IMG/VR virus record: IMGVR_UViG_3300045988_104133 | Span: 1 to 64,000 of that record | Length of the DNA stretch: 64,000 bases | Direction: 5' to 3' (one strand) | DNA from: a virus | Part shown: piece by piece, positions 642 through 54,735 of the stretch | How positions within the stretch are numbered: the first letter of the stretch is position 1 | Layout of the letters: each line of letters begins with the position of its first letter | Notes under the pieces: generated by a model | What the model was told of the DNA's origin: nothing | The model's database searches: none | What the model saw: the letters and a program-made list of their open reading frames with translations, nothing else | Position numbers and translations under genes: made by a program

Positions 642-1151
642 TTATACCTCGATTCCGTTATCTGCAAGAATCTTCCTGAGAAGACGAATCTCGCTGTCCT
701 TAGACTTGATAGTCTCGTTCTGTGCATTGATGATCTGAATGAGCTGGGCATTCTTGTCTTTGAACGACTCCTCTTCACGCTCCTTGGCCCGTTCCGTTCC
801 CGTAGTTAAGTTTTGGCTATTGTCACCAACGTTCCCGGCATTTATCAGCTGCGCCATCGGTATGCCGTGCTTAAACGCCTCGTTGATGGACTCTTCTATC
901 TTCTGATGCGTTTCGCCTAGCTGAATTACCATATTTCCATTCATACTACCGCTTCCATACTTTAGCCAGCTATAGCTAACCCCAAGAGAATTGCATATTT
1001 TACTAATCGTTCCCTCGGATATTGACAGCTTCCCGCTTCTCATCTTGCCGATGTTGTTTGTTCCTGTAGCCTTCATGAAGGCATTCTCGCTCATCTTCTT
1101 AATCTTGATGAGGTAATCTAACCTTTCTTGTACCGAATTTAATGTTCCCAT
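642..1151 (-). CDS. XRE/CI-type helix-turn-helix repressor with C-terminal coiled coil
   Basis: N-terminal HTH_3-like pattern (LDYLIKIKKMSENAFMKATGTNNIGKMRSGKLSISEGTISKICNSLGVSYSWLKYGSG). Divergent from the early operon. Confidence 0.75.
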   Translation of the reverse strand: MGTLNSVQERLDYLIKIKKMSENAFMKATGTNNIGKMRSGKLSISEGTISKICNSLGVSYSWLKYGSGSMNGNMVIQLGETHQKIEESINEAFKHGIPMAQLINAGNVGDNSQNLTTGTERAKEREEESFKDKNAQLIQIINAQNETIKSKDSEIRLLRKILADNGIEV

Positions 1152-2491: not shown

Positions 2492-2695
2492 ATGCCTCGC
2501 AAGAAAGTATCAGTAGAGCCTGTCGAAAAGATTTGGCTCTCTACAAAAGAGTTCGCCGAGTATATCGGCATGAGCACTGGTTATATACACGACCTAAGAA
2601 AGAGCGGTCAGATCCATCATTATATGATAGGCAATACCGCATTCTTTAAAAAGTCCGATATAGATGAGCTCATTGAAGAGCATAAAGTGTGTTGA
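2492..2695 (+). CDS. Small HTH_17 (excisionase/MerR-like) DNA-binding protein
   Basis: WLSTKEFAEYIGMSTGYIHDLRKSGQIHHYMIGNTAFFKKSDIDELIE matches the excisionase-family HTH pattern. Confidence 0.7.
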   Translation: MPRKKVSVEPVEKIWLSTKEFAEYIGMSTGYIHDLRKSGQIHHYMIGNTAFFKKSDIDELIEEHKVC

Positions 2696-2829
2696 AAATT
2701 GGTATGGTTAAAGTTATAGGTTTGTTTCATTTGCTCGTGAGAGCATGTTGTTAGTTATTTTGTTTACGTCTACAACGGTAGACACTTTGGGGCGATGTCT
2801 GTTCGTTTAGCTTCTTTCGCCCCAAATCA

Positions 2830-2904
2830 GACTGAGTAGCTCAGTTGGATAGAGCATCGGTTTCCTAAACCGAGGGTCGAAGGGTCCGAGTCCCTCCTCA
2901 GTCA
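2830..2904 (+). tRNA. tRNA-Arg (anticodon CCU) with atypical T arm
   Basis: Acceptor GACTGAG/CTCAGTC, D arm GCTC-AGTTGGATA-GAGC, anticodon arm TCGGT-TTCCTAA-ACCGA. The T arm is 18 nt with loop TCCGAGT (TCC instead of TTC). Confidence 0.8.
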
Positions 2905-3454
2905 CACTCTTTTTTTTAGTTCCGTTTAGTAGTTGAATTCCTCTCTGACGGCGCAAAGGTAAGTCCTTATACCTTATAAAGTAGGTCGTTCGGGCAGCGA
3001 CAATCTTGCGTCAGATGAGAGTTTCATTGAGCGGACATGGAAGATAGTTCTTTGACATGTTGATGCACAGAAATAGTATGCGTGTAAAAGAAGTAACTGG
3101 ATAGCATCAATGGATGCCGTGACCTGGCGAAAGGACGCACGACATACGAAAATCCAGCTAATCTGCATCAAGTAAGCAGACGGACTACACCGGAACGAAG
3201 AATTGTCGGTGCAAGCACTGCCGAAAACGTTGCAGTCTGGTAAATCCAAATGAAGTGAGAATTGCTCATTCATAAAAAATAATCAAGAGGTTAGTAGTGT
3301 AACTGATGCACGGCGATAACAAAATGATACCGATCTTATCATCGCAAGAGGTTCTTCGTTGAGCCCTAGCCTCCAAAAAGTAATTCATTGTATTTCATAT
3401 TCAAATTAATTCAATTAAAAATGCAGCTCGTCTGTGAAGATAGGCTGCATACAT
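2905..3454 (+). ncRNA. Candidate large structured non-coding RNA inside the tRNA array
   Basis: 550 nt with no credible ORF and GC-normal composition between AT-rich spacers. Several nested complementary pairs were found (2944-2950/3009-3015, 2956-2961/2970-2975, 3076-3084/3138-3147, 3104-3108/3113-3117, 3188-3192/3207-3211, 3422-3427/3444-3449). Confidence 0.35.
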
Positions 3455-3527
3455 CGCAGGTTGGAGCAGTTGGTAGCTCGCTAGGTTCATGACCTAGAGG
3501 TCACAGATTCGAGTTCTGTACCTGCCA
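3455..3527 (+). tRNA. tRNA with CAU anticodon (Met/fMet or Ile2-type)
   Basis: Anticodon arm CTAGG-TTCATGA-CCTAG, T arm ACAGA-TTCGAGT-TCTGT, D arm GAGC-AGTTGGTA-GCTC. Positions 1:72 are a C-C mismatch. Confidence 0.8.
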
Positions 3528-3530
3528 CAA

Positions 3531-3584
3531 ATGTTTATTTTTAAAGCTCTAAAATGTTTATTTTTAAAGCTCTAAATTGTTTAT
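3531..3584. repeat. 23-bp perfect tandem duplication (ATGTTTATTTTTAAAGCTCTAAA x2 plus partial third copy)
   Basis: Copies at 3531-3553 and 3554-3576 are identical. 3577-3584 begins a third, diverged copy. Confidence 0.9.
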
Positions 3585-3671
3585 ATGTGAAAAGATTGTT
3601 TTTTGCGTATCTGGGGTCTGAGAAGATAGGGTACGTCTATCTATTTTAGAATAGATTATTTTTTATTTCTG

Positions 3672-3748
3672 AGGAGAGTAGCTCAGTAGTAGAGCGCCAG
3701 AGGAAGATTCCTTGGAGGTCGATGGTGCGAATCCATCCTCTCTTCCCA
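3672..3748 (+). tRNA. tRNA-like gene with encoded CCA but non-canonical anticodon arm (identity undetermined)
   Basis: Acceptor AGGAGAG/CTCTCTT, D arm GCTC-AGTAGTA-GAGC, T arm GATGG-TGCGAAT-CCATC, then C+CCA. There are 20 nt (GCCAGAGGAAGATTCCTTGG) where 18 are expected, and no 5-bp/7-nt fold. Confidence 0.5.
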
Positions 3749-3793
3749 ATTTTCTTTCATTTTTCAAGAATTTTGATTGGTTAACTTATGCGT

Positions 3794-3867
3794 CGCCCAG
3801 TAGCTCAACTGCATAGAGCCGCGGTTCTCTTTCCGCGAGGTTGGGAGTTGGAGTCTCCCCTGGGCTT
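3794..3867 (+). tRNA. tRNA-like gene with 8-nt all-pyrimidine anticodon loop (identity undetermined)
   Basis: D arm GCTC-AACTGCATA-GAGC. Stem CGCGG/CCGCG closes the loop TTCTCTTT. T arm is GGGAG-TTGGAGT-CTCCC. Acceptor CGCCCAG/CTGGGCT has a 1:72 C-T mismatch. Confidence 0.45.
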
Positions 3868-3989
3868 CCCAAGTAGGTAAATTTCAAAAAAATATTTTTT
3901 CATTAGCTGACAGAGGTCGGCACTTTTTCTTATAAGTCATTTATATTTGAGTATTAATATCCTCTTGCTTGTGAAAGTAGGAGGTACAA

Positions 3990-4061
3990 GCCACATTAGC
4001 TCAGTTGGTCAGAGCAGCCTAACATGGTGGTTGGTCGTAGGTTCGAGTCCTGCATGTGGCT
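3990..4061 (+). tRNA. tRNA-like gene with truncated anticodon arm containing CAT
   Basis: Perfect acceptor GCCACAT/ATGTGGC, D arm GCTC-AGTTGGTCA-GAGC and T arm GTAGG-TTCGAGT-CCTGC. Only about 15 nt (GCCTAACATGGTGGT) stand where a 17-nt arm is expected. Confidence 0.55.
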
Positions 4062-4182
4062 CACTTAATTGTGTGAGTGCCATAAATTTACAGTTTTTGA
4101 TTATCTTTGGGAGTGAGGGAGTCAATTCTCCCTCCTCCCTTTAACGTTGACCTCTTCCACATCACGAATAACCACGTGCAAT

Positions 4183-4221
4183 AACCTCTCCTGCCTTGCG
4201 TGGTGGCTAAACGGAGAGGTT
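4183..4221 (+). terminator. 9-bp hairpin (AACCTCTCC/GGAGAGGTT) with short T tract, at the end of the tRNA array and 8 nt before the next ATG
   Basis: Stem 4183-4191 pairs with 4213-4221, then TTTT. CCACG 4172-4176 can alternatively pair with CGTGG 4199-4203 in the loop. Confidence 0.35.
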
Positions 4222-4229
4222 TTATATAG

Positions 4230-4493
4230 ATGAAAGTTAAAAATACAATAAGAATCAGTAAGGAAAACATTAATGCTCTTCGGAATCTGGAATGCGTTGA
4301 AAGCATAGAACAGAACGGAAAGGACATTACTGTTCGCATTAAACCGAAATATACGGATGGTAGACTTGAAGCCAGAAAGGGTGAATATCTTATTCAGTGG
4401 GGTAATAAAATGTGGCAGAGGTATGGCTCTGATGCTATCAATCTGCTTTTCAAAAATCCCGGAGCGGAGGCCGGCAAGACATGGGACGCGTAG
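4230..4493 (+). CDS. Hypothetical protein
   Basis: 87-aa ATG ORF on the coding strand of the block. It overlaps the next gene by 13 nt. Confidence 0.55.
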   Translation: MKVKNTIRISKENINALRNLECVESIEQNGKDITVRIKPKYTDGRLEARKGEYLIQWGNKMWQRYGSDAINLLFKNPGAEAGKTWDA

Positions 4494-10282: not shown

Positions 10283-11683
10283 ATGTCAGATAAACCGAAA
10301 TTATACGATTATCAAGAAGAAGGTGTGCGCATGGAGCTTGCTATGAAACGCTGTATCAATGGCGATGACATGGGAACCGGTAAAACGGTTCAGTCTATCG
10401 TCGCCATTGAACGTGCAAAGGCAACTCCTTGCCTTGTTGTTTGCCCTGCTGCACTTAAGGTTAATTGGGAACGAGAGATAAAGAAGTTTACGAACCTCCG
10501 GCCTCTCATTCTTACCGATTCCGTCAATGCGACATACGGATATCATCTTACTAAGATGAACCTGTATGATGTAGTGATATGTAATTATGAATCGCTTGCA
10601 AAATATTTTGTCGTAAGCCTCGGGCCAAAGCCGTTACGACTGAACAACTTCCTGTTCCGTGATGAACTGAAGATTATTAAGTCAGTGATTATCGACGAGT
10701 CTGCAAGAGTCAAGGATCCGTCCACAAGGCAGTCTAAAATCATCATGGGATTGTGCCAGGGTAAGGAGTATATCTATGAGCTTACAGGTACGCCCGTTGT
10801 AAATCACGCAACAGACCTGGCCTGCCAGCTTGCTATCCTCGGTCGCCTGAACGACGAGTTCGGAGGTTTTGGTGAGTTCTGCAACAGGTACGGTGAGAAT
10901 GAGAATCTTGAAGAGCTTAATCGGAAGATACACGAAACATGTTACTTCCGCAGAGAGAAGAAAGATGTCCTCAAGGATTTGCCGGATCTGACCAGGACAA
11001 CCATCAGTGTTGCCCTCGACCCAGATACACAGGAAGAGTACGATACCTGCCAGAAAGACCTGCTCACGTTCCTTCTCGAATACAAGAGCTGCTCCGAGGA
11101 AGAGGCTAGGAAAAAGCTTAGAATGAAGGCTCTTGTCAGGTTTATGAACCTTCGCTCGATATCCGGGCGAGGGAAGATGAAGGCGACGATAGAGTTCCTT
11201 CATGATACCGAAGAACAGATAATCGTGTTCGCCGAGCATCGTGATGTCGTTAGTGCAATCAAGAAAGAGTTTCCTGACGAGGTTTGCACCGTAACCGGCT
11301 CTGATAGTCAGCAGCAGAAACAATGGGCTATCGATTCTTTTCAGGCTAGGAAAAAGAGAATCATCATCTGCTCCATCAAGGCAGCAGGCGTAGGCCTTAC
11401 GCTTACGGCTTCTTCCAATGTGGTGTTCGTCGAGCTCCCATGGACGATGGCGGACTTGTCGCAGTGTGAATGCCGTGCCTATCGTAACGGTCAGAAGAAT
11501 GCGGTTACATCGTGGATTCTCATGGGTGCAAATACCATCGACGGCTATCTTTATAGCTTGATTATGCAGAAAGGCTCAATAGCATCAAAGGTTACGGGCG
11601 AACAGGACTCCGCTATCAAGGATGCAGCCTACTTTGATGAGTTGGCCGATTTGGTTTTACAAAATTCTTTAAATAAAAAATAA
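10283..11683 (+). CDS. SNF2-family DEAD/H helicase
   Basis: DYQEEGV, GDDMGTGKT (Walker A), IIDESARVKD (DExx), and the helicase-C motifs GVGLTLTASSNVVFVELPW...ECRAYRNGQ. Confidence 0.85.
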   Translation: MSDKPKLYDYQEEGVRMELAMKRCINGDDMGTGKTVQSIVAIERAKATPCLVVCPAALKVNWEREIKKFTNLRPLILTDSVNATYGYHLTKMNLYDVVICNYESLAKYFVVSLGPKPLRLNNFLFRDELKIIKSVIIDESARVKDPSTRQSKIIMGLCQGKEYIYELTGTPVVNHATDLACQLAILGRLNDEFGGFGEFCNRYGENENLEELNRKIHETCYFRREKKDVLKDLPDLTRTTISVALDPDTQEEYDTCQKDLLTFLLEYKSCSEEEARKKLRMKALVRFMNLRSISGRGKMKATIEFLHDTEEQIIVFAEHRDVVSAIKKEFPDEVCTVTGSDSQQQKQWAIDSFQARKKRIIICSIKAAGVGLTLTASSNVVFVELPWTMADLSQCECRAYRNGQKNAVTSWILMGANTIDGYLYSLIMQKGSIASKVTGEQDSAIKDAAYFDELADLVLQNSLNKK

Positions 11684-21985: not shown

Positions 21986-23224
21986 ATGGAGAAACGAATA
22001 ATTTTAGACGAACAAGATATGAATGAGTTTACAAAGATTTTCGCAAAGACAATAGAAGATGAAGCTATCAAACAGATAGAAACCCTATCTAATAGCGAGG
22101 CTTACAATAGTTGTAAAATAAGAATAATGCCAGATTGCCATGCAGGTAAAGGATGCACTATTGGCACGGTAATAGAGCTTGATAACAGAGTAGTTCCTAA
22201 CACTGTTGGAGTAGATATAGGCTGCGGCATGAAAGTCGTAAGACTTGGTAAAGTTGATATTGACTTGCAGAAATTTGATGAAGAAGTCAATAAGTTGATT
22301 CCGTCTGGTTTTAATGTCAACGAGGGAGAAGTATCAGCCTACATAAACGGATTGGTTGATGGTTGTATGTTTGGCAAATTCCGTGCTTGGGATTGTCTTA
22401 CCAGCATGGAAATAGTATATCGTTCTGTTGGAAGTCTTGGCGGTGGCAATCACTTTATTGAGTTAGATGCAAATGAAGAAGGAGAGAAGTTTCTTGTGAT
22501 ACATACAGGAAGTAGAAACCTTGGTGTTAGGGTATGCAACTATTACCAAAAACTTGCCTACGAGTATTGTCGTAAGAAAATAGCTGATAAGTCTGAGGTT
22601 ATTGCCAAGTTGAAAAGCGAAGGAAGAGAAAAGGAAATACAGAGTGCTATCAAGTTGTTAGGTACTAGAAATATTAGCAAGGAACTTTCTTACTTGGAGG
22701 GCGATTTGCTTGATGATTACTTAAATGATATGCGTATAGTTCAGAAGTATGCCGAGCATAATAGAAGAATTATAGCTAACAGACTCGTCAATGCTCTAGG
22801 TGTGGATATTGACCCAAATTCAGACAAGCATTCTTTTACAACCATTCACAACTATATAGATACAGACAAGGGTATATTGCGAAAGGGAGCTATCAGTGCA
22901 AAAAAGGATGAGGTAGTCATTATCCCAATGAATATGCGTGATGGTTCTCTTATCTGCAAGGGAAAAGGTAACAAAGATTGGCTATGCTCTGCCCCTCATG
23001 GCGCAGGTAGATTAATGTCTCGTACACAGGCAAAGAAAGAGTTATCTATGGATTCTTACAAGAATGAAATGAATGGTATTTATTCCACATCAGTTTGTGA
23101 AGAAACCATTGACGAAGCACCTATGGCATATAAATCAACAGAAGAGATTGTTGAGCTAATAAAACCTACGGTTAATGTGATAGATGTTATTAAACCAATT
23201 TACAACTTTAAAGCAAAATTATAA
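21986..23224 (+). CDS. rtcB: RtcB-family 3'-phosphate RNA ligase
   Basis: MPDCHAGKGCTIGTV, GVDIGCGM, GGGNHFIEL, HTGSRNLG and SAPHGAGR are metal-binding and catalytic-His motifs of RtcB. Confidence 0.9.
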   Translation: MEKRIILDEQDMNEFTKIFAKTIEDEAIKQIETLSNSEAYNSCKIRIMPDCHAGKGCTIGTVIELDNRVVPNTVGVDIGCGMKVVRLGKVDIDLQKFDEEVNKLIPSGFNVNEGEVSAYINGLVDGCMFGKFRAWDCLTSMEIVYRSVGSLGGGNHFIELDANEEGEKFLVIHTGSRNLGVRVCNYYQKLAYEYCRKKIADKSEVIAKLKSEGREKEIQSAIKLLGTRNISKELSYLEGDLLDDYLNDMRIVQKYAEHNRRIIANRLVNALGVDIDPNSDKHSFTTIHNYIDTDKGILRKGAISAKKDEVVIIPMNMRDGSLICKGKGNKDWLCSAPHGAGRLMSRTQAKKELSMDSYKNEMNGIYSTSVCEETIDEAPMAYKSTEEIVELIKPTVNVIDVIKPIYNFKAKL

Positions 23225-23430
23225 TGAGCAAGGAAACATTTGACTTCTCGGAGGCTCTCAGAAGAATGAAGGAAGGAAAGAAAGTGAGAAGGGTAATTTG
23301 GAAAGAATGTGGAGCTTATATCCATATTGTCTCTGTGACTATTGTGGCTGTATGCGATGGCAAATTCTTTCCTTGTGTTTTCAAAGATTCTGAGGATATT
23401 CTAGCAAATGACTGGGAGGAGGTGGAATGA
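23224..23430 (+). CDS. DUF2829-family small protein (family that includes the Thoeris inhibitor Tad2)
   Basis: FDFSEALRRMKEGKKVRRVIWKECGAYIHI ... ILANDWEEVE fits the DUF2829 pattern (f.eAl.alk.GkkvrR..W ... DWe). Confidence 0.6.
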   Translation: MSKETFDFSEALRRMKEGKKVRRVIWKECGAYIHIVSVTIVAVCDGKFFPCVFKDSEDILANDWEEVE

Positions 23431-33389: not shown

Positions 33390-36300
33390 CTAATTTAATG
33401 AATTAATATTCTTGTTATCTAATCTTTTCTTGTTGCAGTCTTCCTTATCTCCACTCAATCGCAGAACCTCTGATTCAAGGAAGACCACCCGAGCCTTCAA
33501 CCTGCTGACCTCATCGCCCACCTGCTCGATAGCACCGAATGCCGTTGCAATCAGCTTCGGAGACCAGTAGTTAATCTTGTAGTAGCCCTTCTCGTCAGTC
33601 TCCACGATGTCCTTTAAGTGAGGGTTGCACAAGACGTGTTGGGCAATCCAACCGATAGACCTTGTGTTGTCCTTCTTCCAAGCAAAGCTGAACGTGCCAC
33701 CCATCGCCTTGATGATACCCAAGTAGTCCAGCTTCCGCAAATCCTGCTTCAAGCGGATGTCAGAACTAGCATAAGCTGTAACTCCACCTTTAGCAAGAAT
33801 GCTATTAGGGAAGTAAGTATTCATATAAGCATCATAATCATATATATGACCAGTAGTACTAATTGTATATCTGTCACCATTATAGTTATATTTAGTTAAA
33901 GCTAAAGCTCTAATTTTAGCAACAATACCATTACGTAAAGCAGTATTATTACTAGGATGACTAAATACTAATCTCACATAACGATAATTATCATTACCAA
34001 CATTTACATTTAGAGGACCAACACAAATATCACATTTGTGTGACCATCCTTTCATTATTTTAGAAACATATTCTTTATAACCACCAGTACTACTTCCAAA
34101 ATATACTTGGCATTTTATATCAACTCCATTATTTACATCAACACTTATCCAACTAAGTTCTTGATATATTTCATCAGGAATCTTAACAGTAACCCTAAGT
34201 TGATTTTTCTTTATTTGAGCAAGTTTATCAGCCTCAGTATCACCAAGCAAATTATTAGACCCTAAATAATAATTAAATCCTCTAGCATTATCGTTTATAA
34301 GATTAAATCTATTTTCTGGATTACCAAAATATGTATTCCAAGTAGCACCATTATCCATTGAATATTCTACTTGTATATTATCTTGAGGAATACCATTAAA
34401 CATATTAGTAACATTAGCTGCAATACTACCATCCCAATTATTTACATTAGTACCAAAAGCATTTACATCAGCCGTGGTAGGCATTATACCTTTAGCTGTT
34501 AATAAATTATTAATATGAGTAGAACCATTAATAGTAGCAGTATTAATAATAGTTATATCTTTAAAAAGAGCATAACCACCTTGCATTATTTTCCAATTAT
34601 TACTATCTGCTTGACTACACATGTCTTGAACTTTCACCCAATTAGTATTATTACCATTACCTAAATATAAATCACCACCACTACCTCCAATTCTAGCTCC
34701 ACTATCAGGAGTTATAGTTGTAATACCTGGAAATTTAAGTGTACCATTACTTCTTTTATTAGAATAATAATTAAATACAGTTCCATCGGCTATACCTAAA
34801 TATATAGCATTAGCGACAGTATCATATTTGAGACCAGCCCAATCACTATACTCCCAGTTGGTTGCTCCAAAACGAATAGCAGCACCAGTATTAAATACTA
34901 CTTGGTCTTTTATAGCTGATATACGAGCATTAGCATTTACATTATTATTTAATATTATAGCTCCGTTTTCAGAATCACTATTATTTATGTATATTGTTCC
35001 GTTAACATTTCCAGTACCATCAAAACTTTGACCCCAAATACTTCTAGCAGTTCTGAGTTTAGTTGCAGAAGCTACATTGTCATGTAGAAAAGCAAGATAA
35101 CCAACTTGAGTTGCTGTAGTAGTATTTATACCATGCATTATTCTAATTCTTCCACTAGTTCCTATATCAAATCTAGTTCTCCAAGTAGAATAACCTTGTA
35201 TATTAATTATATCACCATAGCTTTCATGAAAATTATTATGTCCCTCATTAGTATGAGCCCAACCATAAACTCCAACTCCATCCTTAGTTACAGATGCATC
35301 TCCATACTCACCTCTATATCTAAGAAATGAACTTTCATGATAACCATCTACAGTATCTGCATTACCAGCACTACTAGCATAACCATTATGCAAAGCATTA
35401 TATAAACTATTTGCACCTTTTTGACTAAGACTTGTACCAGTAGAAGTTCCACTATAACTATCAGTAATTCCTCTCCAAGTATTTTGCCAAGTAGTAGAAA
35501 CACCATTGATAGTAATAGTTTGACCACTTACAGAACCAGTAACAAAGTTCTTGTCATTAGTAAGTTGACTAAGTTTAGTAAGATTACCTTTATGATAAAC
35601 TTCATATTCAGCATCATATTTACTAGTAGTTCTAACTACATTATTGCTAAAATATAATACTCCATTTACTGCACGAATACCATCATAGTTACCGTTACTT
35701 CTAAAAAATAGAATAGCTTCAGTAGGGGTCTCAGATACATCATTAGTATAAATGCTATTAACTCCAATAATATCGGAATTTCTCATATTTATACCCCATT
35801 GACCAGAACTATAATATCTATCATTAGCCATAGTAAGAACACTAACATCTTGATGACTAGTAAGATAACCTTGACTTTTAACCCAAGATTGCGTAGCATA
35901 CCCATTAAGAGATTGATGACTAGTAAGATAAGTTCCTAAATCTACAGCAGCACCACCAGTAGCTGCAATAGTTTTAGTAACACCGTTAATCTTTACACTA
36001 TGTGTATGACTAGTTGCCGACTTACCACTAAGAAGTGAATCTACACTACTTTTGGTATAATAGTTAGCAAGACTTTGGTGAGAAGTTAAAAATGTAGCAC
36101 CTTTAGTAAATGTAATGCCCTTTCCGCTTTTAGATACAGACGTGATAGCATTTCCACTTCCACTTACAGATATTGCATTAACGTAACCATCAAGTGACTG
36201 ATGATTAGTTAAGAACGTACTACCTTTAACTACGCTGATAGTAGTACCATCCTTGGTGACAGACGTAACCGCATTACCGCTGCCGCTGACAGAGATAGCA

Positions 36301-39300
36301 GTAGCACTACCACCTTCCAAGCTGGAAATACGAGAATCAAGAGCCTTGATGGAGTAGGCAGAGGCAATCTCACTCAGCGATTCTGATGTAAGCTTCAAGG
36401 CATTTGAATAACTCTTCACACTGCCGTTCAAGCCGCCACCACTGGATGAGGATGTCCCAACACCATAGGCAGAAACACCACCACTAGTATAGAGGTTTGC
36501 CACCTCGTTAGTCGTAGTGTTCGTAATCTTCAACGCCTTATTGGTTGCATCATACTCCATCTTTATGTTGCCGATGGAGATGTACTTTCCGTTAGGCACG
36601 ATGATACTTCCGTTAATATCGGCAGTACCGTTAAACGAGTTACCCCAAAGCTTGCGAGTATTCGTGAGCTGGAGAGCCTTTTTCGCTGAACCGTTTGTGA
36701 AGTAGCCTTGCAAGGTGGCGATACTCCCTTTGTTTGCGGATATGCCCGAAGCATTTACCCCTTCTGCCTTTTTCGCTCTTGTCACCTCATCAGAAATTGA
36801 CTTATTGATTCCGTCAACAATACCGCTCAAAGTATTCGTCTGCGCAATATTTGCGAGGAAGCTAACCACCTCGTTCCACTTATTGATAACGCCGTCCGCA
36901 GTCTCCTCGTCAGTAGTTATAAGGGCGTACCAGTCATAGGCACTATCCCAACAAGTTACCTTCGTTGATGTAATGCCGTCCAGTACAGACTTATTGCTAT
37001 GAGTATGCTTTGCTGATACCGCACCATCCCAAGCCGTCTGCTTTGCAGTAGTAGGAATAGAGTAACCCGAGGCAAGACTAATGGCAAACGTACCGCTTGT
37101 TGTGATAGTCTTAGTTGCGCACGTCAAACCAGTAGGAAGGGTAAGAGCTACAGATGTAACAGTACCCTTATTGGTAGTATAGCCCTTTGCATCAATCTCC
37201 GCTTTGGTATAATAGCTTGCGAGAGACTGATGAGCAGTCAGATACCCTTTATCATTGGTAAGCTGGCTTACCTTCGTGATGCGGTCAGTGATTTCTGTCC
37301 ACTTATGGGTATGCGCACTAGGTGTGAATGTTGATGGCTTACCCGTGATGTTATTCCAAGAAAGGCTCAGACCGCCAAGCTCTGATGCTATATTGTCAAT
37401 TCGGCTGCTGAGAGCCTTTATAGCATAGGCATTCGGAATGCTAGTCAAGTCCGCATCCGTATAGTTTCCCTCTATGATTCTCGCATAGCTGATTACGCTT
37501 GCAATCAAGCCGCCACCACCCGTGGTAGATGCTCCTGCTCCGTATGCCGTGATACCACCTGTGGTATAGAGATTGCCATCAATTTTGATAGCCTTGTTTT
37601 TGGAATCATACGTGAGCTTAATGCCATGGAAGGAGATTGCGCCTTCGAATGTAGCATCGCCCGATACGCCAAGTTTAGAGAATGGAGCGTTTGGCTTCAA
37701 AGACACAAGGTCGGCAACGCTCGTTCCTGCACTTCCTTCCTTCCAAGTCGGCTCGAAGAAGGTGAGGTATGCGCCAAGATTCTTCTCACTGATGATAAAC
37801 GATGTCGGGTCTGCGTGAACCTTTCCGCTCACATCCCACCAGATAGCACCATTGGCAAGATAACCCGAGCCATCGAAGCGGATGAGGGAGGTTGCAGGGG
37901 TAAGATTTCCGCTATTATAGTCCTTATCCACCATCTGACCGCCCCACCATGTTGCGATACTCTTCTTTCCTCTATTCGTGTCTATTGCTCCGTTGATACC
38001 GCTCTGAACGTTTCCGTCTCCGTCTCTCAGCGCAAGGAGCGTTGTCATTACAAGACCACCGTCAATATGTGTAGTCTGACCGAGCGCATCCTTGAGATAC
38101 TTGTAACCTGCGAGGTCTGTGATATTCTGCTTCAAGTCACCATATATCTTGCTAGTGATATAGGCGTTTGCCAAGCCAAGTTTGTCATAGAATGCGCTGT
38201 ATGCGGACTGGAAGTTGGTAAACTTCGTTCCCACGGCTGAGACGATAGCAGCCTTGCCGTTGGTATCAGCCTTATTGTAATTTGTAGATATATCTGAGAG
38301 ATACGTAACGAGTTCCGTCTTAGCAGTAGAGAGAGTAGTGAAAGCAGTATTAAGGTCGGTGAGTTCTTTTGTACTCTTTAACACCTCTGCTCCCTTCACT
38401 TCATTGTACGACTTCTCGGCAGCTGCGAAAGCATCTTCAAGTCGCTTGGAATCCTGCGCCATAGCCGCAATCTCAGAAGGCTCTAGATAGCCATCTGTAA
38501 CGTAGCTGTCGAAAGCCTTCTTGTTGGTGGTGACGGTAGTTCCTAATTTGCTGATGTCACCCTGCGCCTTTTCTGCCGCCTTCTGCGCTTTCTCCGCCGC
38601 TGCCTGGGCTGCGTTAGCAACGGTATCATCGGTGTATTTAGATGCTTTTATCCAATCACCGATTGCGAACTGAGAACCAGCACCCTTTGCAGTCTGGCAG
38701 CGCAATACCTCATTCTTATAGGTACTGCCGTCTGCTGGATAAGTCGCATTAACCCAAATGTCACCAACTTGGTATGGTGGGTTCGGCTGAGTGCTAAATA
38801 CCTTCATTTTGCCATCTGCCGTTTCCTGTGCCTTGCTTGCATCTGAAAGGGCTTTAGCGATGTCGGTATCTGTAATGATAGTCCACTTATAGGTGTTGCC
38901 ATCCTTGGCAAAGCGATATGCCTTGCCCGTCTTGTTGTCATAATAGAGGTCGCCCAAATGGGTATCTTTTTCCTTGTCTGTCGCCCAACTGCTGGCTGGA
39001 GCATTCTTCAAAGTAGGCACACCCTCATAGAACCACGTCTCGATAGCACCATCCACCTGATTCTGCAAGTCAGTAATAACCTGCGAGTTCTTGATGAGAT
39101 TGTTCACCTGCTCCTCTGTCAAGCCCTTTGCTGAGTTCTCCTTGATGTACTGAGACAATTCCTTGCCATCTACTGTGGATTTGGCTGAGATTTTGCCTTT
39201 AACAGATACCTGCTTGGCTGCGCTGTCATACTTGATGTAGCTACTACCCTCATAGCCATTCTCCTTAGTAGGTCGGTCTCCGAAGTACATATCACCATAG

Positions 39301-42284
39301 ACGTTGAAGAATGCCTTGTTATTCTTCTTATTTACACCATATTCCACGTACTCCCTATTGGCAAAGGAATAGCTGTTGATGCCGTGATAGAGGCTTATGG
39401 ATGGCGAATAGGTATCTACCGCCGAGAAGATAAGGCAGTTCTGACGTTCCACATCGGTTCTATTACCGCACTGGTTGAGCACATCACCTTTAGCAGGAAC
39501 ATCGCTTGCCGTAGCGCAATCGGTATCAGAGAGGTCGATGTAATGATATTTCTTTCCTTCCAACTCTACAGGGTCTTCATCACGACCGATTACCAATCGC
39601 CAATAGAAGTGATTGCCAGCCTTGTGATAAGTGCCCTTGCGAACATTGAATGATTCCGAGCGCACTTGGTCGCCAACAGCGAAATCATTATCCACGGCAT
39701 CGCCTTCCTGCTCTGCTAAGAAATAGCAACGATAAGCCTTCTGTGACACATTGTTATATGTCACAGTAACCTCTTCTACCTTATGAGCCACCACGCCACC
39801 AGCAGGAGAGATTATCTCCTTACCACCGATGGTGGATGTTTTATTGATGACCAGCTCCTCGAAGATAGCCTTCATTCTTACCTCCAAGTAATCTGTGATT
39901 AGGTGCGAACGACCTTCTGCGTCTGGAGTCCACGAGCCTCCACCGACAAGCAATCCCTGCAAGAACTTCTGCACCTTTTCCCAAGTGATAGTTCCTTTTG
40001 CGGTGTCATCGTTTATCTTTGAGATGAAGTGCTTACTTCCCTCTGTCGCAACCTGACTCTTGACCTGGGTAGTTGTCAAGCCTGCACCAGTTCCTCCATT
40101 TCCGCTTTGGAGCGACGAAATCTGCTGCTGAATCTTCTGGATAGTACCAACCTCTTTATCCTCACGAAGAGTTATGTCGTATGTCGGTATCTTGCCATCT
40201 TCTTCCTTGATTGTGAGCTGATCTATGGATATTACACCGCCAATTCTGAGGTCAGTATCCTCAAACTCCATCAAGTCTCCGGCTTTGAGCGTATCATGAA
40301 GACTCTTGATAACTCCTGTAGTATCCTTTTCAGCAAGATCATGCTGTCTTGCCATGAAAATCTCATCAACCTTAGGCTGATAGACGTACCTTGTGTAGTC
40401 GTTCTTGTCAATGAATGCTATGGCGTATTTAAGGAGTTTCAGAGACGCAGCATTGACATACGAATCAGGAAGTGTGATGTCGGTAAGAACGAAATGGTCG
40501 CCTTTCTTGATAGGGTAGTCCTTGTATGGAAACCAAAGCTCAAGAGCGTCGTCCTTTACTCTTTCAATAGTAAGCCTCCATCTTCCATCAATCTTGGTTG
40601 AGGATGCTACCTTGAATGTTCGTCCGCCACACATACCATCCTTCATCGAGATGGAGAAGTCGTCATCCTTTAAGTCGTTGATATCAAAGTCGATAGCCTT
40701 TTTAAGATAGATATCAACATTCTTTACGGTTTCATTATCGCCAAATCTTCCGTCATCATCAGGAGCCACACCCTCATCAATCTCATCAACACGTACGCCA
40801 CCGATTTCCATCTCTTCGATAGTAGGGTAGATTTCAATAACTCCATTTGTCTTATCATCTGTTTCAAAGAACTGCGATGCAGAACGAAGGCCAATCTGCT
40901 CGATGTTGATAGAATCGATGTATGGCCTGTGCGGATCTGTGGAGAATTTATGCTGTCTCCCGGTAGGATTCACGTACTTCTTCTCTTCATCCGTGAGTGT
41001 GTTATAGAAATCACTCAGCGATACATGAGGGAATCCAGGCAACATAAGTCTGTTGATGGACATGTTGTTCGGAAGATTCTTTGCGTACTCCTTCATGGAT
41101 GAAGGAACTGCCTTCTTGTTGAGACCGGACGTGATATACATCTTTGTATTTCCGGCCTTGACCTGCGCAATAAACGCATCAAGCTTCTCCTTTGATTCCT
41201 CATCTCCGGTGTCAGTCTGTGTTCCCTTCAGCTCAGAATAGAATCTACATTTTTTAGAGTCGTATGCCTGTGTTACATAACCGGTAATCTCAGTTTTGAA
41301 ATCAAATGTAACCTTAAGTACCCAACCGAGAGACTGCTCGCCAGTTTCCCCAGGAACAATATACTTTCTCGGATTCTTGAAATATGTTTCTATATAATCG
41401 AGGTCCAGTTCAAGTGTAACATTCGTGCTGGCCCCGACGACTTTCGTGATGTTCGCCACATACTTGACACCGAGGTCCGCATAGTAGTGAGAAGGAAGAT
41501 TCTTCTCGGAACCATATGCTCTTAGTCTTGTAACGACACTCTGATCGGAATCAGCGTTCTGAACAATCTCATAGAGTCCATTGCCGAGTCCGTACTTGAA
41601 GATATGATTAGCCTGTATTCCGGTAGTACCGACATAGATGTTTCTCCCTCTGACGATGAAGTTTATGTCCCACTTCTCGTTCACAAGCGCAAGGGCTTGC
41701 CAACAGGTCTGCGAATCCACTGTAATAGACATCGATTCGATGACGTTATCGTCGGTTTTCTCACCATAAACCGACAACCACTCACTTTCGAGGGCTCCAC
41801 GCTGCACGGAACGCTCCTTGTTTCGGGAGTAAATCTTCCAAAGACCTGCACCAATCTGCTCGTTTAAGCATGCCTGGATTCTGTCGAGCAAATCATCCAA
41901 AGTCTGTACATAGAATGGAAATTTCGGTAGGGAAGTGTAGTGAAGCTCGTTATCGTTCAATACCACATCGAGGAACTCTGCCCTGGCAAGCTCATCCTGC
42001 AATGCATTGAACTTTACGCTGTCATATACGAAGCCCTCTCCATATGTGTCGGGTCTGGCCTGCTTATCCTTGCCCGGCTCGTAGTTGAGCTCAAACCGCT
42101 CGCCACGATAGACAATATAGTCGCCTATCTGAAAGTTGATAGGCACTTCATGCTTGAAATTGATAGTCACGAAGCACTCACCCATCCAAGAATCGGAGTA
42201 TTCCAATCCATGAACGGTTATCTGCTCTCCGTTAACGTCTGTCAGCTTCGAGCCATCCTTATGATAAATATTCCAAGTACTCAT
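33390..42284 (-). CDS. Giant tail fibre / tail-associated host-specificity protein with C-terminal S74 intramolecular-chaperone domain
   Basis: 2964 aa. The N-terminus resembles siphovirus Tal/minor structural proteins. It carries repeated (Y/F)LT(A/S/N)HQSL and SGSGNA(V/I)TSV modules. The C-terminus SSDIRLKQDL...IGWIAQHV...YWSPKLIATAFGAIEQ...LESEV is the S74 signature. Confidence 0.85.
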   Translation of the reverse strand: MSTWNIYHKDGSKLTDVNGEQITVHGLEYSDSWMGECFVTINFKHEVPINFQIGDYIVYRGERFELNYEPGKDKQARPDTYGEGFVYDSVKFNALQDELARAEFLDVVLNDNELHYTSLPKFPFYVQTLDDLLDRIQACLNEQIGAGLWKIYSRNKERSVQRGALESEWLSVYGEKTDDNVIESMSITVDSQTCWQALALVNEKWDINFIVRGRNIYVGTTGIQANHIFKYGLGNGLYEIVQNADSDQSVVTRLRAYGSEKNLPSHYYADLGVKYVANITKVVGASTNVTLELDLDYIETYFKNPRKYIVPGETGEQSLGWVLKVTFDFKTEITGYVTQAYDSKKCRFYSELKGTQTDTGDEESKEKLDAFIAQVKAGNTKMYITSGLNKKAVPSSMKEYAKNLPNNMSINRLMLPGFPHVSLSDFYNTLTDEEKKYVNPTGRQHKFSTDPHRPYIDSINIEQIGLRSASQFFETDDKTNGVIEIYPTIEEMEIGGVRVDEIDEGVAPDDDGRFGDNETVKNVDIYLKKAIDFDINDLKDDDFSISMKDGMCGGRTFKVASSTKIDGRWRLTIERVKDDALELWFPYKDYPIKKGDHFVLTDITLPDSYVNAASLKLLKYAIAFIDKNDYTRYVYQPKVDEIFMARQHDLAEKDTTGVIKSLHDTLKAGDLMEFEDTDLRIGGVISIDQLTIKEEDGKIPTYDITLREDKEVGTIQKIQQQISSLQSGNGGTGAGLTTTQVKSQVATEGSKHFISKINDDTAKGTITWEKVQKFLQGLLVGGGSWTPDAEGRSHLITDYLEVRMKAIFEELVINKTSTIGGKEIISPAGGVVAHKVEEVTVTYNNVSQKAYRCYFLAEQEGDAVDNDFAVGDQVRSESFNVRKGTYHKAGNHFYWRLVIGRDEDPVELEGKKYHYIDLSDTDCATASDVPAKGDVLNQCGNRTDVERQNCLIFSAVDTYSPSISLYHGINSYSFANREYVEYGVNKKNNKAFFNVYGDMYFGDRPTKENGYEGSSYIKYDSAAKQVSVKGKISAKSTVDGKELSQYIKENSAKGLTEEQVNNLIKNSQVITDLQNQVDGAIETWFYEGVPTLKNAPASSWATDKEKDTHLGDLYYDNKTGKAYRFAKDGNTYKWTIITDTDIAKALSDASKAQETADGKMKVFSTQPNPPYQVGDIWVNATYPADGSTYKNEVLRCQTAKGAGSQFAIGDWIKASKYTDDTVANAAQAAAEKAQKAAEKAQGDISKLGTTVTTNKKAFDSYVTDGYLEPSEIAAMAQDSKRLEDAFAAAEKSYNEVKGAEVLKSTKELTDLNTAFTTLSTAKTELVTYLSDISTNYNKADTNGKAAIVSAVGTKFTNFQSAYSAFYDKLGLANAYITSKIYGDLKQNITDLAGYKYLKDALGQTTHIDGGLVMTTLLALRDGDGNVQSGINGAIDTNRGKKSIATWWGGQMVDKDYNSGNLTPATSLIRFDGSGYLANGAIWWDVSGKVHADPTSFIISEKNLGAYLTFFEPTWKEGSAGTSVADLVSLKPNAPFSKLGVSGDATFEGAISFHGIKLTYDSKNKAIKIDGNLYTTGGITAYGAGASTTGGGGLIASVISYARIIEGNYTDADLTSIPNAYAIKALSSRIDNIASELGGLSLSWNNITGKPSTFTPSAHTHKWTEITDRITKVSQLTNDKGYLTAHQSLASYYTKAEIDAKGYTTNKGTVTSVALTLPTGLTCATKTITTSGTFAISLASGYSIPTTAKQTAWDGAVSAKHTHSNKSVLDGITSTKVTCWDSAYDWYALITTDEETADGVINKWNEVVSFLANIAQTNTLSGIVDGINKSISDEVTRAKKAEGVNASGISANKGSIATLQGYFTNGSAKKALQLTNTRKLWGNSFNGTADINGSIIVPNGKYISIGNIKMEYDATNKALKITNTTTNEVANLYTSGGVSAYGVGTSSSSGGGLNGSVKSYSNALKLTSESLSEIASAYSIKALDSRISSLEGGSATAISVSGSGNAVTSVTKDGTTISVVKGSTFLTNHQSLDGYVNAISVSGSGNAITSVSKSGKGITFTKGATFLTSHQSLANYYTKSSVDSLLSGKSATSHTHSVKINGVTKTIAATGGAAVDLGTYLTSHQSLNGYATQSWVKSQGYLTSHQDVSVLTMANDRYYSSGQWGINMRNSDIIGVNSIYTNDVSETPTEAILFFRSNGNYDGIRAVNGVLYFSNNVVRTTSKYDAEYEVYHKGNLTKLSQLTNDKNFVTGSVSGQTITINGVSTTWQNTWRGITDSYSGTSTGTSLSQKGANSLYNALHNGYASSAGNADTVDGYHESSFLRYRGEYGDASVTKDGVGVYGWAHTNEGHNNFHESYGDIINIQGYSTWRTRFDIGTSGRIRIMHGINTTTATQVGYLAFLHDNVASATKLRTARSIWGQSFDGTGNVNGTIYINNSDSENGAIILNNNVNANARISAIKDQVVFNTGAAIRFGATNWEYSDWAGLKYDTVANAIYLGIADGTVFNYYSNKRSNGTLKFPGITTITPDSGARIGGSGGDLYLGNGNNTNWVKVQDMCSQADSNNWKIMQGGYALFKDITIINTATINGSTHINNLLTAKGIMPTTADVNAFGTNVNNWDGSIAANVTNMFNGIPQDNIQVEYSMDNGATWNTYFGNPENRFNLINDNARGFNYYLGSNNLLGDTEADKLAQIKKNQLRVTVKIPDEIYQELSWISVDVNNGVDIKCQVYFGSSTGGYKEYVSKIMKGWSHKCDICVGPLNVNVGNDNYRYVRLVFSHPSNNTALRNGIVAKIRALALTKYNYNGDRYTISTTGHIYDYDAYMNTYFPNSILAKGGVTAYASSDIRLKQDLRKLDYLGIIKAMGGTFSFAWKKDNTRSIGWIAQHVLCNPHLKDIVETDEKGYYKINYWSPKLIATAFGAIEQVGDEVSRLKARVVFLESEVLRLSGDKEDCNKKRLDNKNINSLN

Positions 42285-53553: not shown

Positions 53554-54735
53554 TTAACCCTTCTTGGTAATGTCGATAATCCAACGGTAAGGAGAATCGA
53601 GCATAGCAGGAACAGAAGCGAGGAACAAGTCTGTTTTGAACTCCTGGTAGAGACCGTTCGCGGTAATCATGTTACGCAGCAAGCCAAGCTTGTTGTTGGT
53701 CTGCGCCCAAGCCACATCAATGAGCTTGTTGCCAAGGGTGTCAAAGATACGCTTGTCAAGGATCTCCTTACGCATGAAACGCAAAGGCTTGCCAGCAGGA
53801 CGAAGAACAACTGTTCCGTCTGCCCAACCACGAATCTCTGTAACTGTGCCATCGAAGCGCTTGTTGTGCTCAACCTCATCGACAATCTCGATAGGAGAAA
53901 GACCGTTGAGGTCAACAACAGACTTCAAGAACATTGCGTTGTTTGGACCGTAGTTCTGCAAAACTGCCACAAAGTTAGCGTTCGCCCAGCTCTTGTACAA
54001 CTCAGCAATCTGCTTGTTCTTCAAGAATACGTTATTGTAGTCGTTCTTGGTCATCTGCCATACGAGAGGTACACTGCGGTACTCGATGTTCTCCTTGCGC
54101 CAATCCTCCTCAAACTTGCGCATCTGCTCAAGTAAGTCGCAGTTTGGATCGTTCCAGGCAAGCGTACCCGCCTTTTTGAAGTTCTCCTTTGGAACCTTTG
54201 CGTCATACAGAGGCTCCTGGATACCACGACCAATCTTGTCGTAGTCGATGAAACCTGTCGAACTCAACTGAGCTGACATGTAGGTCATAGTCATGTCGAG
54301 TGAGTCGTACAATACCTGTACCTTGTCGAGGTAAGCATCAACCAGGTCAGCGTCGTTGCCGAACTCATCCTGGAGAAGCTTCATCTTGTGGTAACGCTCT
54401 GTCGCAGTCTCACGGAAGCCGTCAGCAGCGAAGTCTGGAATTGAAGCGGTGTACCACTCAATACCCTCATGGTCGTTCTGATAGCCCTCGCCGAGAGGAG
54501 CACGGAGGTTCATCAAGGTTGCAGGGTTCAATTTACGTGTGCGAACCTTGAAGGTTGCATCACCATTGTTAGATGTAGGGGTGAGATCTGGATCAATGTC
54601 ACCCTGTGTCAGATACCAGCCGTTGTTACAGCGAAGTACGCCGTCACGATTGACGAACTTCTGAAGGTAAGTGTTGTTACCCTTACCAGTGAAGAACTTC
54701 GCAAGCTGCTCGACACCAATATCAATTTTTGCCAT
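53554..54735 (-). CDS. Major capsid protein (lambda gpE-like)
   Basis: 393 aa. The C-terminal pattern DGTVVLRPAGKPLRF ... LASVPAMLDSPYRWIIDI parallels lambda E (DNTMVLGN...RTYG ... QSAPLMLLADPDEFVSVQL). Position after the scaffold fits. Confidence 0.7.
   Translation of the reverse strand: MAKIDIGVEQLAKFFTGKGNNTYLQKFVNRDGVLRCNNGWYLTQGDIDPDLTPTSNNGDATFKVRTRKLNPATLMNLRAPLGEGYQNDHEGIEWYTASIPDFAADGFRETATERYHKMKLLQDEFGNDADLVDAYLDKVQVLYDSLDMTMTYMSAQLSSTGFIDYDKIGRGIQEPLYDAKVPKENFKKAGTLAWNDPNCDLLEQMRKFEEDWRKENIEYRSVPLVWQMTKNDYNNVFLKNKQIAELYKSWANANFVAVLQNYGPNNAMFLKSVVDLNGLSPIEIVDEVEHNKRFDGTVTEIRGWADGTVVLRPAGKPLRFMRKEILDKRIFDTLGNKLIDVAWAQTNNKLGLLRNMITANGLYQEFKTDLFLASVPAMLDSPYRWIIDITKKG

Follow-up and report, generated by a model that had tools for sequence, protein, structure and literature searches.

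Why would a phage keep, next to working tRNA genes, several others whose products appear unfit to read codons? This question is raised by an array of tRNA-like elements located between positions 2830 and 4062 on the plus strand of a 64,000-nucleotide stretch of viral DNA (positions 1 to 64,000 of IMG/VR record IMGVR_UViG_3300045988_104133; hereafter called the window), which represents most of a tailed temperate phage of ~85-90 kb overall. An earlier note, made from the sequence alone, had described five such elements, and we find a sixth. The array is mixed. Two members, a tRNA-Arg(CCU) and an initiator-type tRNA-Met(CAU), are working decoders, and the remaining four are very probably non-decoding tRNA mimics.

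Composition of the array

The five elements described earlier are borne out in position and strand by ARAGORN, the Rfam tRNA model and the raw sequence, and the hand folds on which they were based prove essentially right. In the window, ARAGORN reports tRNA-Arg(CCT) at 2830-2905 (hereafter tA), tRNA-Met(CAT) at 3455-3528 (tB), a second tRNA-Met(CAT) at 3990-4062 (tE), and a '???' element with a four-base anticodon, CTCT, at 3794-3869 (tD). It makes no call for the element at 3672 (tC). The Rfam tRNA model (RF00005), used with standard filters, recognizes tA (56.8 bits), tB (58.5 bits) and tE (48.9 bits) above its gathering threshold; it finds tC (3672-3745, 46.4 bits) only in permissive mode, and leaves tD unmatched in either mode. 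The previously overlooked sixth element, S (3287-3373), is missed by both tRNA finders in the window. An Rfam search of positions 2600-4300 (E≤10) reveals no other meaningful family, and specifically no Y RNA, ROOL/GOLLD, transfer-messenger RNA (tmRNA) or tRNA-Sec.

Each of the six elements folds into a cloverleaf that has acceptor, D and T arms. Only tA and tB possess the standard decoding arm, in which a 5-base-pair (bp) anticodon stem follows nucleotide (nt) 26 and the 7-nt loop has U33 along with a purine at position 37. The other four arms are unfit for decoding because that of tE is one pair short, that of tC is one or two pairs too long, that of tD is shifted and lacks nt 26, and that of S has ~9 pairs and a bulge. 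These odd arm lengths are not compensated elsewhere in the molecules, and most of the mimic loops lack U33, which is changed to A in S, tC and most tE alleles. Covariance models fold the elements no more canonically than was done by hand, and the oddities therefore stand. They are repeated in ~150 IMG/VR contigs, in 76 stretches from independent ENA/JGI assemblies and in a complete chromosome of Segatella copri, and thus cannot be ascribed to chance or to an assembly artifact.

Automatic annotation assigns shifting identities to these loci. In sister genomes, ARAGORN labels the tC slot Thr, Pro, Leu or Ser, and the tE slot Met, Ile, Val, Leu, Thr, Tyr, Phe or '????'. Across contigs L001-L080, a single orthologous slot receives up to nine amino-acid labels, with SeC among those given. 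Because the labels shift between sister genomes, inferences of codon usage or recoding that are drawn from such gut-phage calls are unreliable.

Conserved bodies carry polymorphic arms

Diversity was measured among 31 independent contigs from the window's own sub-clade, and arm alleles, defined as the segment from the D stem to the variable loop, were taken from every related locus. Nucleotide diversity (pi) in the bodies is 0.030 for tC, 0.001 for tD and 0.034 for tE, versus 0.045-0.099 in four spacers, such that the mimic bodies are 2-50 times less diverse than the adjoining spacers of the same genomes. The arms of these elements yield values of 0.074, 0.145 and 0.280, respectively, and taken together no other DNA of the region varies as much. 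Among 45 distinct haplotypes, one of the 56 columns of the tD body is variable, as are seven of the eight columns of the tD loop. When loop diversity is ranked against 8-nt spacer windows, the three mimic loops fall in the top 10%, 5% and 0.3%. The earlier note had viewed the odd loops as shaped features. Comparison with relatives speaks against this view, as the loops are the least preserved part of the molecules. Its judgment that the elements are tRNA-derived and not the result of random decay is upheld, since the bodies are far more conserved than the spacers and the stems compensate.

Arm replacement is evident even between very similar loci. For pairs with at most two differences in 240 flanking nt, the arms differ in 8 of 35 comparisons for tC, 49 of 104 for tD and 11 of 86 for tE, and in none of 38 for tA and none of 24 for tB. 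An independent collection of 76 metagenome contigs from ENA/JGI shows the same arm allele classes. Alleles of tC, tD and tE are seen in every combination, indicating that recombination is frequent.

The tE arm behaves in a distinctive manner. Two deep alleles, GCCUAACAUGGUGGU and GUCCAAGAUACCGAC, are present at intermediate frequency in almost identical surroundings, and Tajima's D is +2.58 for the arm versus approximately -1.1 for the two larger spacers. This pattern is more suggestive of a polymorphism that is maintained than of a neutral smear. Neither of the major tE arm alleles has a complementary or similar site in the phage beyond chance, as might be expected of guides. Hypermutation by a diversity-generating retroelement was also rejected as a source of the variation, because the changes show no specificity for adenine and the open reading frames (ORFs) scanned include no reverse transcriptase.

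Compensatory changes within the mimics

Among the four mimics, tD (3794..3867, plus strand) has a tRNA-Arg-type body. Its CGCGG/CCGCG stem closes the 8-nt pyrimidine loop UUCUCUUU and directly abuts the D stem, leaving no free nt 26. More than 20 alleles of this arm exist, ranging from 13 to 18 nt, and in close relatives the loop measures 3, 4, 5, 6 or 8 nt. Among 25 distinct sequences, 96% of the cloverleaf cells are paired. The elbow pair 19:56 is C-G in 19 of these sequences, A-U in three and G-C in three; it is never unpaired, and the independent metagenome contigs hold no exception. The stem, the pyrimidine loop, the T loop UUGGAGU and the C-U apposition at 1:72 (usually open in relatives) had all been listed previously as oddities and are all present. 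The T loop, however, is no defect: because 19:56 switches without breaking, UUGGAGU is one half of a compensated elbow pair, C19-G56. With canonical Arg(UCU/ACG/UCG) tRNAs, tD shares its T stem, its variable loop and its D arm, including A20, and it is evidently a derivative of an Arg-type tRNA.

Elbow-pair replacement can also be seen outside of the array. Otherwise canonical tRNA-Arg genes, Arg(ACG), from unrelated viral contigs (L156, L157, L165) carry A19-U56 instead of the near-universal G19-C56. Thus, this replacement is not limited to mimics.

The tC element (3672..3748, plus strand) combines a normal acceptor/D/T body with a 6-7-bp arm stem, the T loop UGCGAAU and an encoded CCA. In the window its arm is a near-palindrome of 19 nt (20 nt if nt 26 is counted), matching the earlier description. 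The full set of relatives contains 23 arm alleles (14 in the initial set) of 17-19 nt, and the variable loop begins with GAA in every one of them, which hints that tC may possibly be of Phe origin. Acceptor pairs 3-7 remain paired with one exception, and compensatory changes occur at 3:70, 4:69 and 6:67. Two acceptor lineages exist that differ in five of seven pairs, three of these differences being fully compensatory. Of 43 sequences, 11 have a mismatch at pair 1:72 and 8 at pair 2:71, and 31 encode CCA. The T loop, which had been classed as a defect, is a lineage trait. It accompanies the D loop AGUAGNA in a class of phage tRNAs, and unrelated viral contigs contain members of this class, for Met, Gly and Thr, that look normal.

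The tE element (3990..4062, plus strand) has an elongator Met/Ile/Thr-type body. Its 15-nt arm in the window is folded by the model as a 3-bp stem with a 9-nt loop, as had been proposed, and can also be read as four positions (including a U-U) that close the 7-nt loop AACAUGG. Approximately 12 arm alleles of 15-24 nt are known, comprising CAU-, GAU-, GGU-, canonical UGU-, UUUCAUUA- and long-hairpin types. The acceptor stem covaries (GCCACAU/AUGUGGC, GCUGCAU/AUGCAGC, GCCGCAU/AUGCGGC), as does the short arm stem (GCC/GGU versus GUC/GAC). In environmental contigs, elongator Met tRNAs with a CUCAUAA loop have a matching body, and in some phages the arm in this slot is a near-normal one of the Thr(UGU) type. 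The tE element appears to be a derivative of an elongator Met/Ile/Thr-type tRNA.

The S element (3287..3373, plus strand) has a minimum free energy of -25.9 kcal/mol (z -2.46) and is found in 72 contigs of this phage family only. It consists of an 8-bp acceptor stem, a D arm, an 'anticodon' arm of ~9 bp with an 8-nt bulge, and a T arm with a 6-nt loop. The acceptor stem, the outer arm stem and the T stem covary among relatives, which retain the AACUAGA sequence and the hairpin GAUA-CCGUUCU-UAUC. AACUAGA varies only to forms that contain CUG or UUG, which are Gln-type triplets, and the D arm aligns with that of a phage tRNA-Gln(UUG). S therefore probably arose from a Gln-tRNA.

Two more exotic identities for S were considered. 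The 8/5 arrangement of a tRNA-Sec or allo-tRNA is present and covaries, but the variable region measures no more than 4-5 nt, and it is inside the arm, after AACUAGA, that the additional hairpin lies. An archaeal-type mini-intron would have explained the RtcB ligase gene discussed below, but the 8-nt bulge is on one strand only and there is no bulge-helix-bulge motif.

In all three tD elbow lineages, in both tC acceptor lineages, and in both phage clades that carry S, the arms are non-canonical. The compensatory changes in the bodies must therefore have come after the loss of decoding geometry. The L-shape of the mimics, including the acceptor, D and T arms and the elbow, is thus under selection at the RNA level, and simple pseudogenes and purely DNA-level explanations are excluded. 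Low body diversity relative to the spacers, together with compensation in acceptor stems, arm stems and the elbow, led us to reject a plain tRNA pseudogene for any of these elements. A conserved L-shape joined to an anticodon arm that is non-canonical and not selected for decoding is what defines a tRNA mimic, and this combination is found here.

The two decoders

In the same array, tA and tB show the opposite distribution of change. The tRNA-Arg(CCU) gene tA (2830..2905, plus strand) has 17 alleles among relatives in which the 7-nt loop YUCCUAA is constant and the stems, T arm and elbow vary. Its arm exists as only two alleles, always of 17 nt and one compensated stem pair apart. The T-arm oddity noted previously is real, as the covariance-model alignment shows an extra base, a T-stem mismatch and the T loop UCCGAGU with C55. 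In some relatives (L001/L016-type) the tA elbow switches from G19-C56 to A19-U56.

The initiator-like tRNA-Met(CAU) gene tB (3455..3528, plus strand) had been called the only near-canonical member. This description suits its decoder arm, which is normal, but not the whole molecule, in which C1 is mismatched with C72 (with A72 in relatives) and A11:U24 is present. These features constitute the bacterial initiator pattern. The tB arm has three alleles, all of 17 nt and single substitutions apart, and initiator-type Met(CAU) tRNAs in related arrays retain U33 and CAU. More generally, the 7-nt anticodon loop of array decoders is unchanged over 17 Arg(CCU), 9 Asn(GUU) and 10 Gln(UUG) alleles, while the stems, T arms and D loops change.

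Directly 3′ of tB, at positions 3529-3574, a 23-nt unit (AAATGTTTATTTTTAAAGCTCTA) is perfectly duplicated in tandem.

Genes and RNA elements near the array

The presence of an RtcB RNA ligase gene, noted earlier, is confirmed by a Pfam match (PF01139, 5.1e-64) to the ORF at 21986..23224 (plus strand). A 68-amino-acid (aa) protein resembling Thoeris anti-defence 2 (Tad2-like; 23224..23430, plus strand; PF11195, 2.3e-10, 41.3 bits versus a cut-off of 25) is encoded starting at the RtcB stop codon, which suggests that the two genes form a small counter-defense cluster. RtcB is common to both clades of the phage family and to another gut phage group that carries a tRNA with an 8-nt anticodon loop. 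A possible function for RtcB as a partner of the array would be the repair of cleaved tRNAs. Approximately 60 ORFs were scanned against Pfam, PHROGs and PADLOC, and the only tRNA-related or defense matches are RtcB, the Tad2-like protein and a DUF1599 protein. TROVE, archease, Pnk, CCA-adding enzyme, HEPN/PIN toxin and aminoacyl-transferase matches are absent from these ORFs.

Between tA and S is a conserved non-coding block of ~310 nt (2936..3250, assumed to be on the plus strand like the array). At least 48 distinct homologues with 77-99% identity exist, for which RNAalifold predicts 63 pairs; those at 6:90, 17:79 and 266:285 show compensatory changes. The block has no Rfam match at E≤10 and is a candidate for a new structured RNA. 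A minus-strand ORF that spans 2974-3273 was rejected as a gene because variable sites are spread 21/25/25 over the codon positions and 15 columns contain indels. The idea that the block is a small RNase P RNA was likewise dropped, since a P4-like pairing seen by eye is unsupported by substitutions in relatives.

A 12-nt motif, TG[T/A]GAA[G/A][A/G]TAGG, occurs in three exact copies within conserved hairpins located 8-41 nt upstream of tB, tC and tE. The first, TGTGAAGATAGG (3433..3444, plus strand), is in a hairpin 10 nt before tB within a block that is conserved in relatives; the second, TGAGAAGATAGG (3619..3630, plus strand), is 41 nt before tC; and the third, TGTGAAAGTAGG (3970..3981, plus strand), is in a hairpin 8 nt before tE. 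The motif could be a leader, processing or promoter element. A terminator-like hairpin (3906-3921) and T run (3906..3928, plus strand) follow tD, and a Bacteroidetes-type -7 motif, TATATTTG, lies at 3942-3949 (plus strand). Further -7 motifs lie at 2717 and 4102, and these sites, like the terminator-like one, are consensus matches only. Together the -7 motifs and the terminator-like hairpin suggest at least two transcription units without an ORF, and the sites between tD and tE make tE look like a unit of its own.

The same array is found in the complete chromosome of S. copri HDD04 and in one S. copri metagenome-assembled genome, from which we conclude that S. copri is the host and that the phage can exist as a prophage. 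More than 100 near-identical contigs are present in IMG/VR, across which a neighboring 492-aa protein is 91-99% identical. GenBank phages include no close relative; the matches among them are generic ones at the tRNA level and span no more than 5% of the query. The RNA region begins directly 3′ of an HTH/excisionase-like gene (2492-2695), which is preceded by genes for an Ant anti-repressor (1653-2486) and a repressor-like protein (642-1151, minus strand). Profile or library matches also identify an SNF2 helicase (10283-11683), and library matches a major head protein (53554-54735, minus strand), a large terminase (56422-58065) and a portal protein (58047-59753). Two giant minus-strand ORFs, 33390-42284 (2964 aa) and 43375-50268 (2297 aa), occupy the structural region. 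The DUF1599 protein mentioned above ('nucleotide modification associated domain 1', 1.5e-10; 208 aa, 62165-62791, minus strand) possibly takes part in DNA or nucleotide modification.

Possible functions of the mimics

Given that a tRNA shape is preserved after decoding has been abandoned, what could these RNAs do? We tentatively favor the possibility that the mimics are decoys for host tRNA-directed enzymes, acting together with repair by RtcB and with real tRNAs that top up the supply. Such RNAs would be transcribed early, their genes lying immediately beyond the lysogeny switch. They would presumably be excised by RNase P and RNase Z, would carry CCA and would fold into a tRNA L-shape. They would then bind host enzymes that recognize the body of a tRNA but act on its anticodon arm or elbow, among them anticodon nucleases and further defense or toxin enzymes directed at tRNAs. 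These enzymes would be soaked up by RNAs that remain unusable, and harmless, in translation. Meanwhile RtcB would re-seal cut tRNAs, and tA and tB would replenish the pool. The arms of tC, tD and tE would be free, or even pushed, to change, with short interchangeable alleles recombining between phages and different alleles suiting different host strains. The suggestion in the earlier note that such RNAs titrate host nucleases would fit this picture.

We favor decoys because the variable part of the mimics is the exact site at which enzymes of the anticodon arm and elbow act, because tE looks like a maintained polymorphism and the elbow pair keeps switching, and because RtcB is followed by a Tad2-like anti-defense gene. 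There is also precedent for phage tRNAs that counter tRNA-cleaving immunity: mycobacteriophage tRNAs with anticodon-loop substitutions resist host tRNA cutting (PMC10264068), the T5 tRNA-Lys counters PARIS (PMC11464382), and the T5 tRNA-Tyr counters a retron effector (PMC11555353).

Several observations weigh against a decoy function. A decoy should copy the loop of the real substrate, and loops of 3-6 nt resemble no anticodon loop. The arm of S is odd but conserved, unlike the variable arms of tC, tD and tE. Arm diversity is only ~1.5-6 times that of neighboring spacers, and for tC and tD it is compatible with a simple lack of constraint combined with slippage in short runs of pyrimidines; the statistics for these two elements do not separate lost constraint from diversifying selection. 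All such values are rough, being based on MAFFT alignments with gaps scored as states and on metagenome contigs of unknown relatedness and sampling. We had also considered that RtcB might track the tC, tD and tE mimics, but the ligase is present equally in a sister clade that has S and canonical-looking other tRNAs. No tRNA-directed nuclease of S. copri was identified in this analysis, and the expression, processing and decoy role of the mimics are inferred from sequence.

A more elaborate form of the decoy idea, which we regard as speculative and rather unlikely, treats the tRNA bodies as scaffolds and the arm alleles as exchangeable specificity cassettes. Immune nucleases of S. copri that are strain-specific and directed at tRNAs would exert frequency-dependent selection and so maintain the polymorphism of the alleles, giving an RNA-only, modular anti-defense system in which decoys operate alongside RtcB repair. 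Switching of the 19:56 pair would represent a second front in this contest, and the 310-nt structured RNA might be a further component.

Perhaps the tRNA shape is instead kept for the sake of RNA maturation. The mimics could be processing or structural elements, retained only because RNase P and RNase Z enter the transcripts there or because they stabilize RNA ends. They would ensure that tA, tB, the leader hairpins and the 310-nt RNA mature correctly, while their own arms drift. The acceptor stem, T arm, elbow and CCA are features recognized by RNase P and RNase Z, and it is the acceptor stem, T arm and elbow that are conserved here, often with an encoded CCA. The unconstrained look of the tC and tD arms would follow naturally, and the conserved leader hairpins that share a motif upstream of tB, tC and tE would be in keeping with such a function. 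On this account, however, one would not expect conservation and compensation of the D stem and the arm stems, which are needless for these enzymes. Nor would one expect the top acceptor pair, important at the RNase P cleavage site, to be the least conserved. In addition, the units do not lie between ORFs, tD and tE are parted by the terminator-like site and promoter-like motif, and the two deep tE alleles are unexpected under plain drift. We therefore consider a processing function unlikely, if still the best of the alternatives.

Less probable is the idea that the mimics are charged but excluded from the ribosome by their distorted arms, serving as amino-acid donors for a non-ribosomal transferase or as regulators that bind and modulate synthetases. 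Bacteria do have non-proteinogenic tRNAs with altered T and D loops, such as the Staphylococcus aureus tRNA-Gly used for cell-wall synthesis. Moreover, identity-type bases persist in the array: GAA in all tC alleles, a central C and A20 in most tD alleles, CUA or CUG in S, and NAU or NGU followed by A in most tE alleles. Most tC alleles also encode CCA. What is missing is a fixed amino-acid identity, since the tE triplet switches among Met-, Ile- and Thr-type, tD loops shrink to as few as 3 nt, and both the first acceptor pair and the discriminator vary. The ~60 scanned ORFs also include no gene resembling Fem-type transferases, L/F-transferase or cyclodipeptide synthase.

Could the mimics simply be young pseudogenes, their bodies looking conserved because of recency or of recombination with intact copies? 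Each mimic does have canonical relatives, exemplified by the near-normal Thr(UGU) arm of tE in some phages. The tD loops are like shortened Arg loops, and recombination in the array is frequent. Young decay cannot readily be reconciled with bodies that are so much less diverse than the adjacent spacers, nor with compensatory double changes that postdate the change of the arm (tD at 19:56, tC in the acceptor, and S and tE in acceptor and arm stems). These genomes also contain no intact donor copy. We judge this account to be improbable.

Very doubtful is a function as unusual decoders, whether quadruplet or frameshift readers, suppressors, or anticodon-switching tRNAs that replace those destroyed in the host. 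The four-base anticodon reported by ARAGORN in tD, the CUA carried by S and the sensible triplets CAU, GAU, GGU and UGU in tE alleles might seem to favor it, and a preprint refers to TAG-recoded phages of S. copri (bioRxiv 10.64898/2026.08.21.746148). The earlier note had similarly proposed frameshift-type decoders with 8-9-nt loops. However, tD loop length is not conserved (3-8 nt), and tC and tE have >20 and ~12 arm forms, respectively, which excludes dedicated frameshift decoders of that kind. Arms of 15-24 nt depart from the standard 17, U33 is replaced as described above, and no shortening of connectors offsets the long or short stems. The genes in the window are long ORFs in the standard code, and no recoding is therefore needed.

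Finally, DNA-level elements, in which the anticodon-loop region would be the variable crossover core of a recombination or integration site, are hardly credible: tyrosine integrases often do use the symmetric anticodon stem-loop of tRNA genes, short inverted repeats flank the variable segment and allele shuffling is frequent, but covariation at 19/56 and between acceptor strands ~60 nt apart is sensible only for a folded RNA, and spacers of 3-8 bp are incompatible with one recombinase core.

Comparison with known systems

Decoy or not, how do the mimics relate to RNAs already known? Like the defense-countering phage tRNAs cited above, they belong to a phage-encoded array, differ from other tRNAs in the anticodon stem-loop, and occur in a counter-defense context that here also includes RtcB. 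The known examples, however, keep a 5-bp stem, a 7-nt loop and a conserved anticodon, whereas the mimic arms are of the wrong length and have the loop as their least conserved part. For the same reason, the earlier proposal of tRNAs that escape nucleases, if these are taken as still decoding, is disfavored for tC, tD and tE. Thus, tA and tB could be grouped with nuclease-evading decoders, but tC, tD, tE and S cannot.

The vtRNAs of murine gammaherpesvirus-68 (MHV-68) are non-decoding tRNA-like RNAs. Others include mascRNA and menRNA (PMC11693755) and the Bacillus cereus pseudo-tRNA 'tRNA-Other' (PMC3399842). All of these resemble the phage mimics in having an L-shaped body, a non-canonical anticodon arm and no decoding function, and presumably in their use of tRNA-processing enzymes. 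They differ in being single genes of eukaryotic cells, a eukaryotic virus or a bacterial chromosome, as opposed to four mimics in a phage array, and neither polymorphic arm alleles nor a switching 19:56 pair has been reported for them.

Y RNAs offer another parallel, as YrlA has a tRNA-like domain in which another helix replaces the anticodon arm, is encoded with Ro60/Rsr and often RtcB, and is present in some phages (PMC4201824). The ends of Y RNA sit in the Ro-binding stem, though, whereas the elements described here have ordinary tRNA topology with ends at the acceptor stem. A YrlA-type Y RNA was rejected on this basis and because there is no Rfam Y-RNA match and no TROVE/Ro60 in the ORFs scanned within the window, beyond which lie another ~23 kb of the phage. 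Phage-encoded RNA ligases capable of re-sealing cut tRNAs, accompanied by the phage's own tRNA genes, are likewise known from T4-type tRNA repair, which counters the anticodon nucleases PrrC and RloC (PMC2610378). That system uses Pnk and Rnl1 rather than RtcB, and mimic RNAs have not been described for it.

Our literature search found no description of a phage array with several tRNA mimics, of frozen bodies whose anticodon arms are polymorphic, or of a 19:56 pair that switches. Unclassified tRNA-like candidates from IMG/VR are mentioned, but not described further, in one large survey (PMC10690425). Regardless of function, two points stand: automatic tRNA labels are misleading for such genes, and the near-universal G19-C56 elbow pair can be replaced by C-G or A-U in phage tRNAs and mimics, which is relevant to RNase P, the ribosome and T-loop recognition. 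It is also of interest that the prophage in which these four tRNA-shaped non-decoders reside is very common and that its host is a major bacterium of the human gut. Defenses that cut or modify tRNAs are now viewed as a major branch of bacterial immunity, and the known phage counters are replacement tRNAs and repair enzymes. If the mimics indeed act as decoys, they would represent the first RNA mimics to target tRNA-directed immunity, and their natural allele series would offer a ready map of host-enzyme recognition.

A last comparison concerns +1 frameshift-suppressor tRNAs, which have an 8-nt anticodon loop. The tD element of the window shares this loop size and the four-base ARAGORN anticodon, but its 8-nt loop is one of more than 20 alleles with loops of 3-8 nt, indicating that loop size is not selected. 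A tRNA from the other gut phage group that has RtcB (L186 and ~40 other IMG/VR contigs, for example L187, L195, L211, L212 and L223-L227) carries a conserved 8-nt anticodon loop, CUUGGUAA, with CAUGGUAA and UUUGGUAA as variants. It belongs to the same D-loop/T-loop class as tC, and several of the contigs encode the same RtcB. Because its 8-nt loop is conserved, this tRNA is a better candidate than tD for a quadruplet or frameshift reader.

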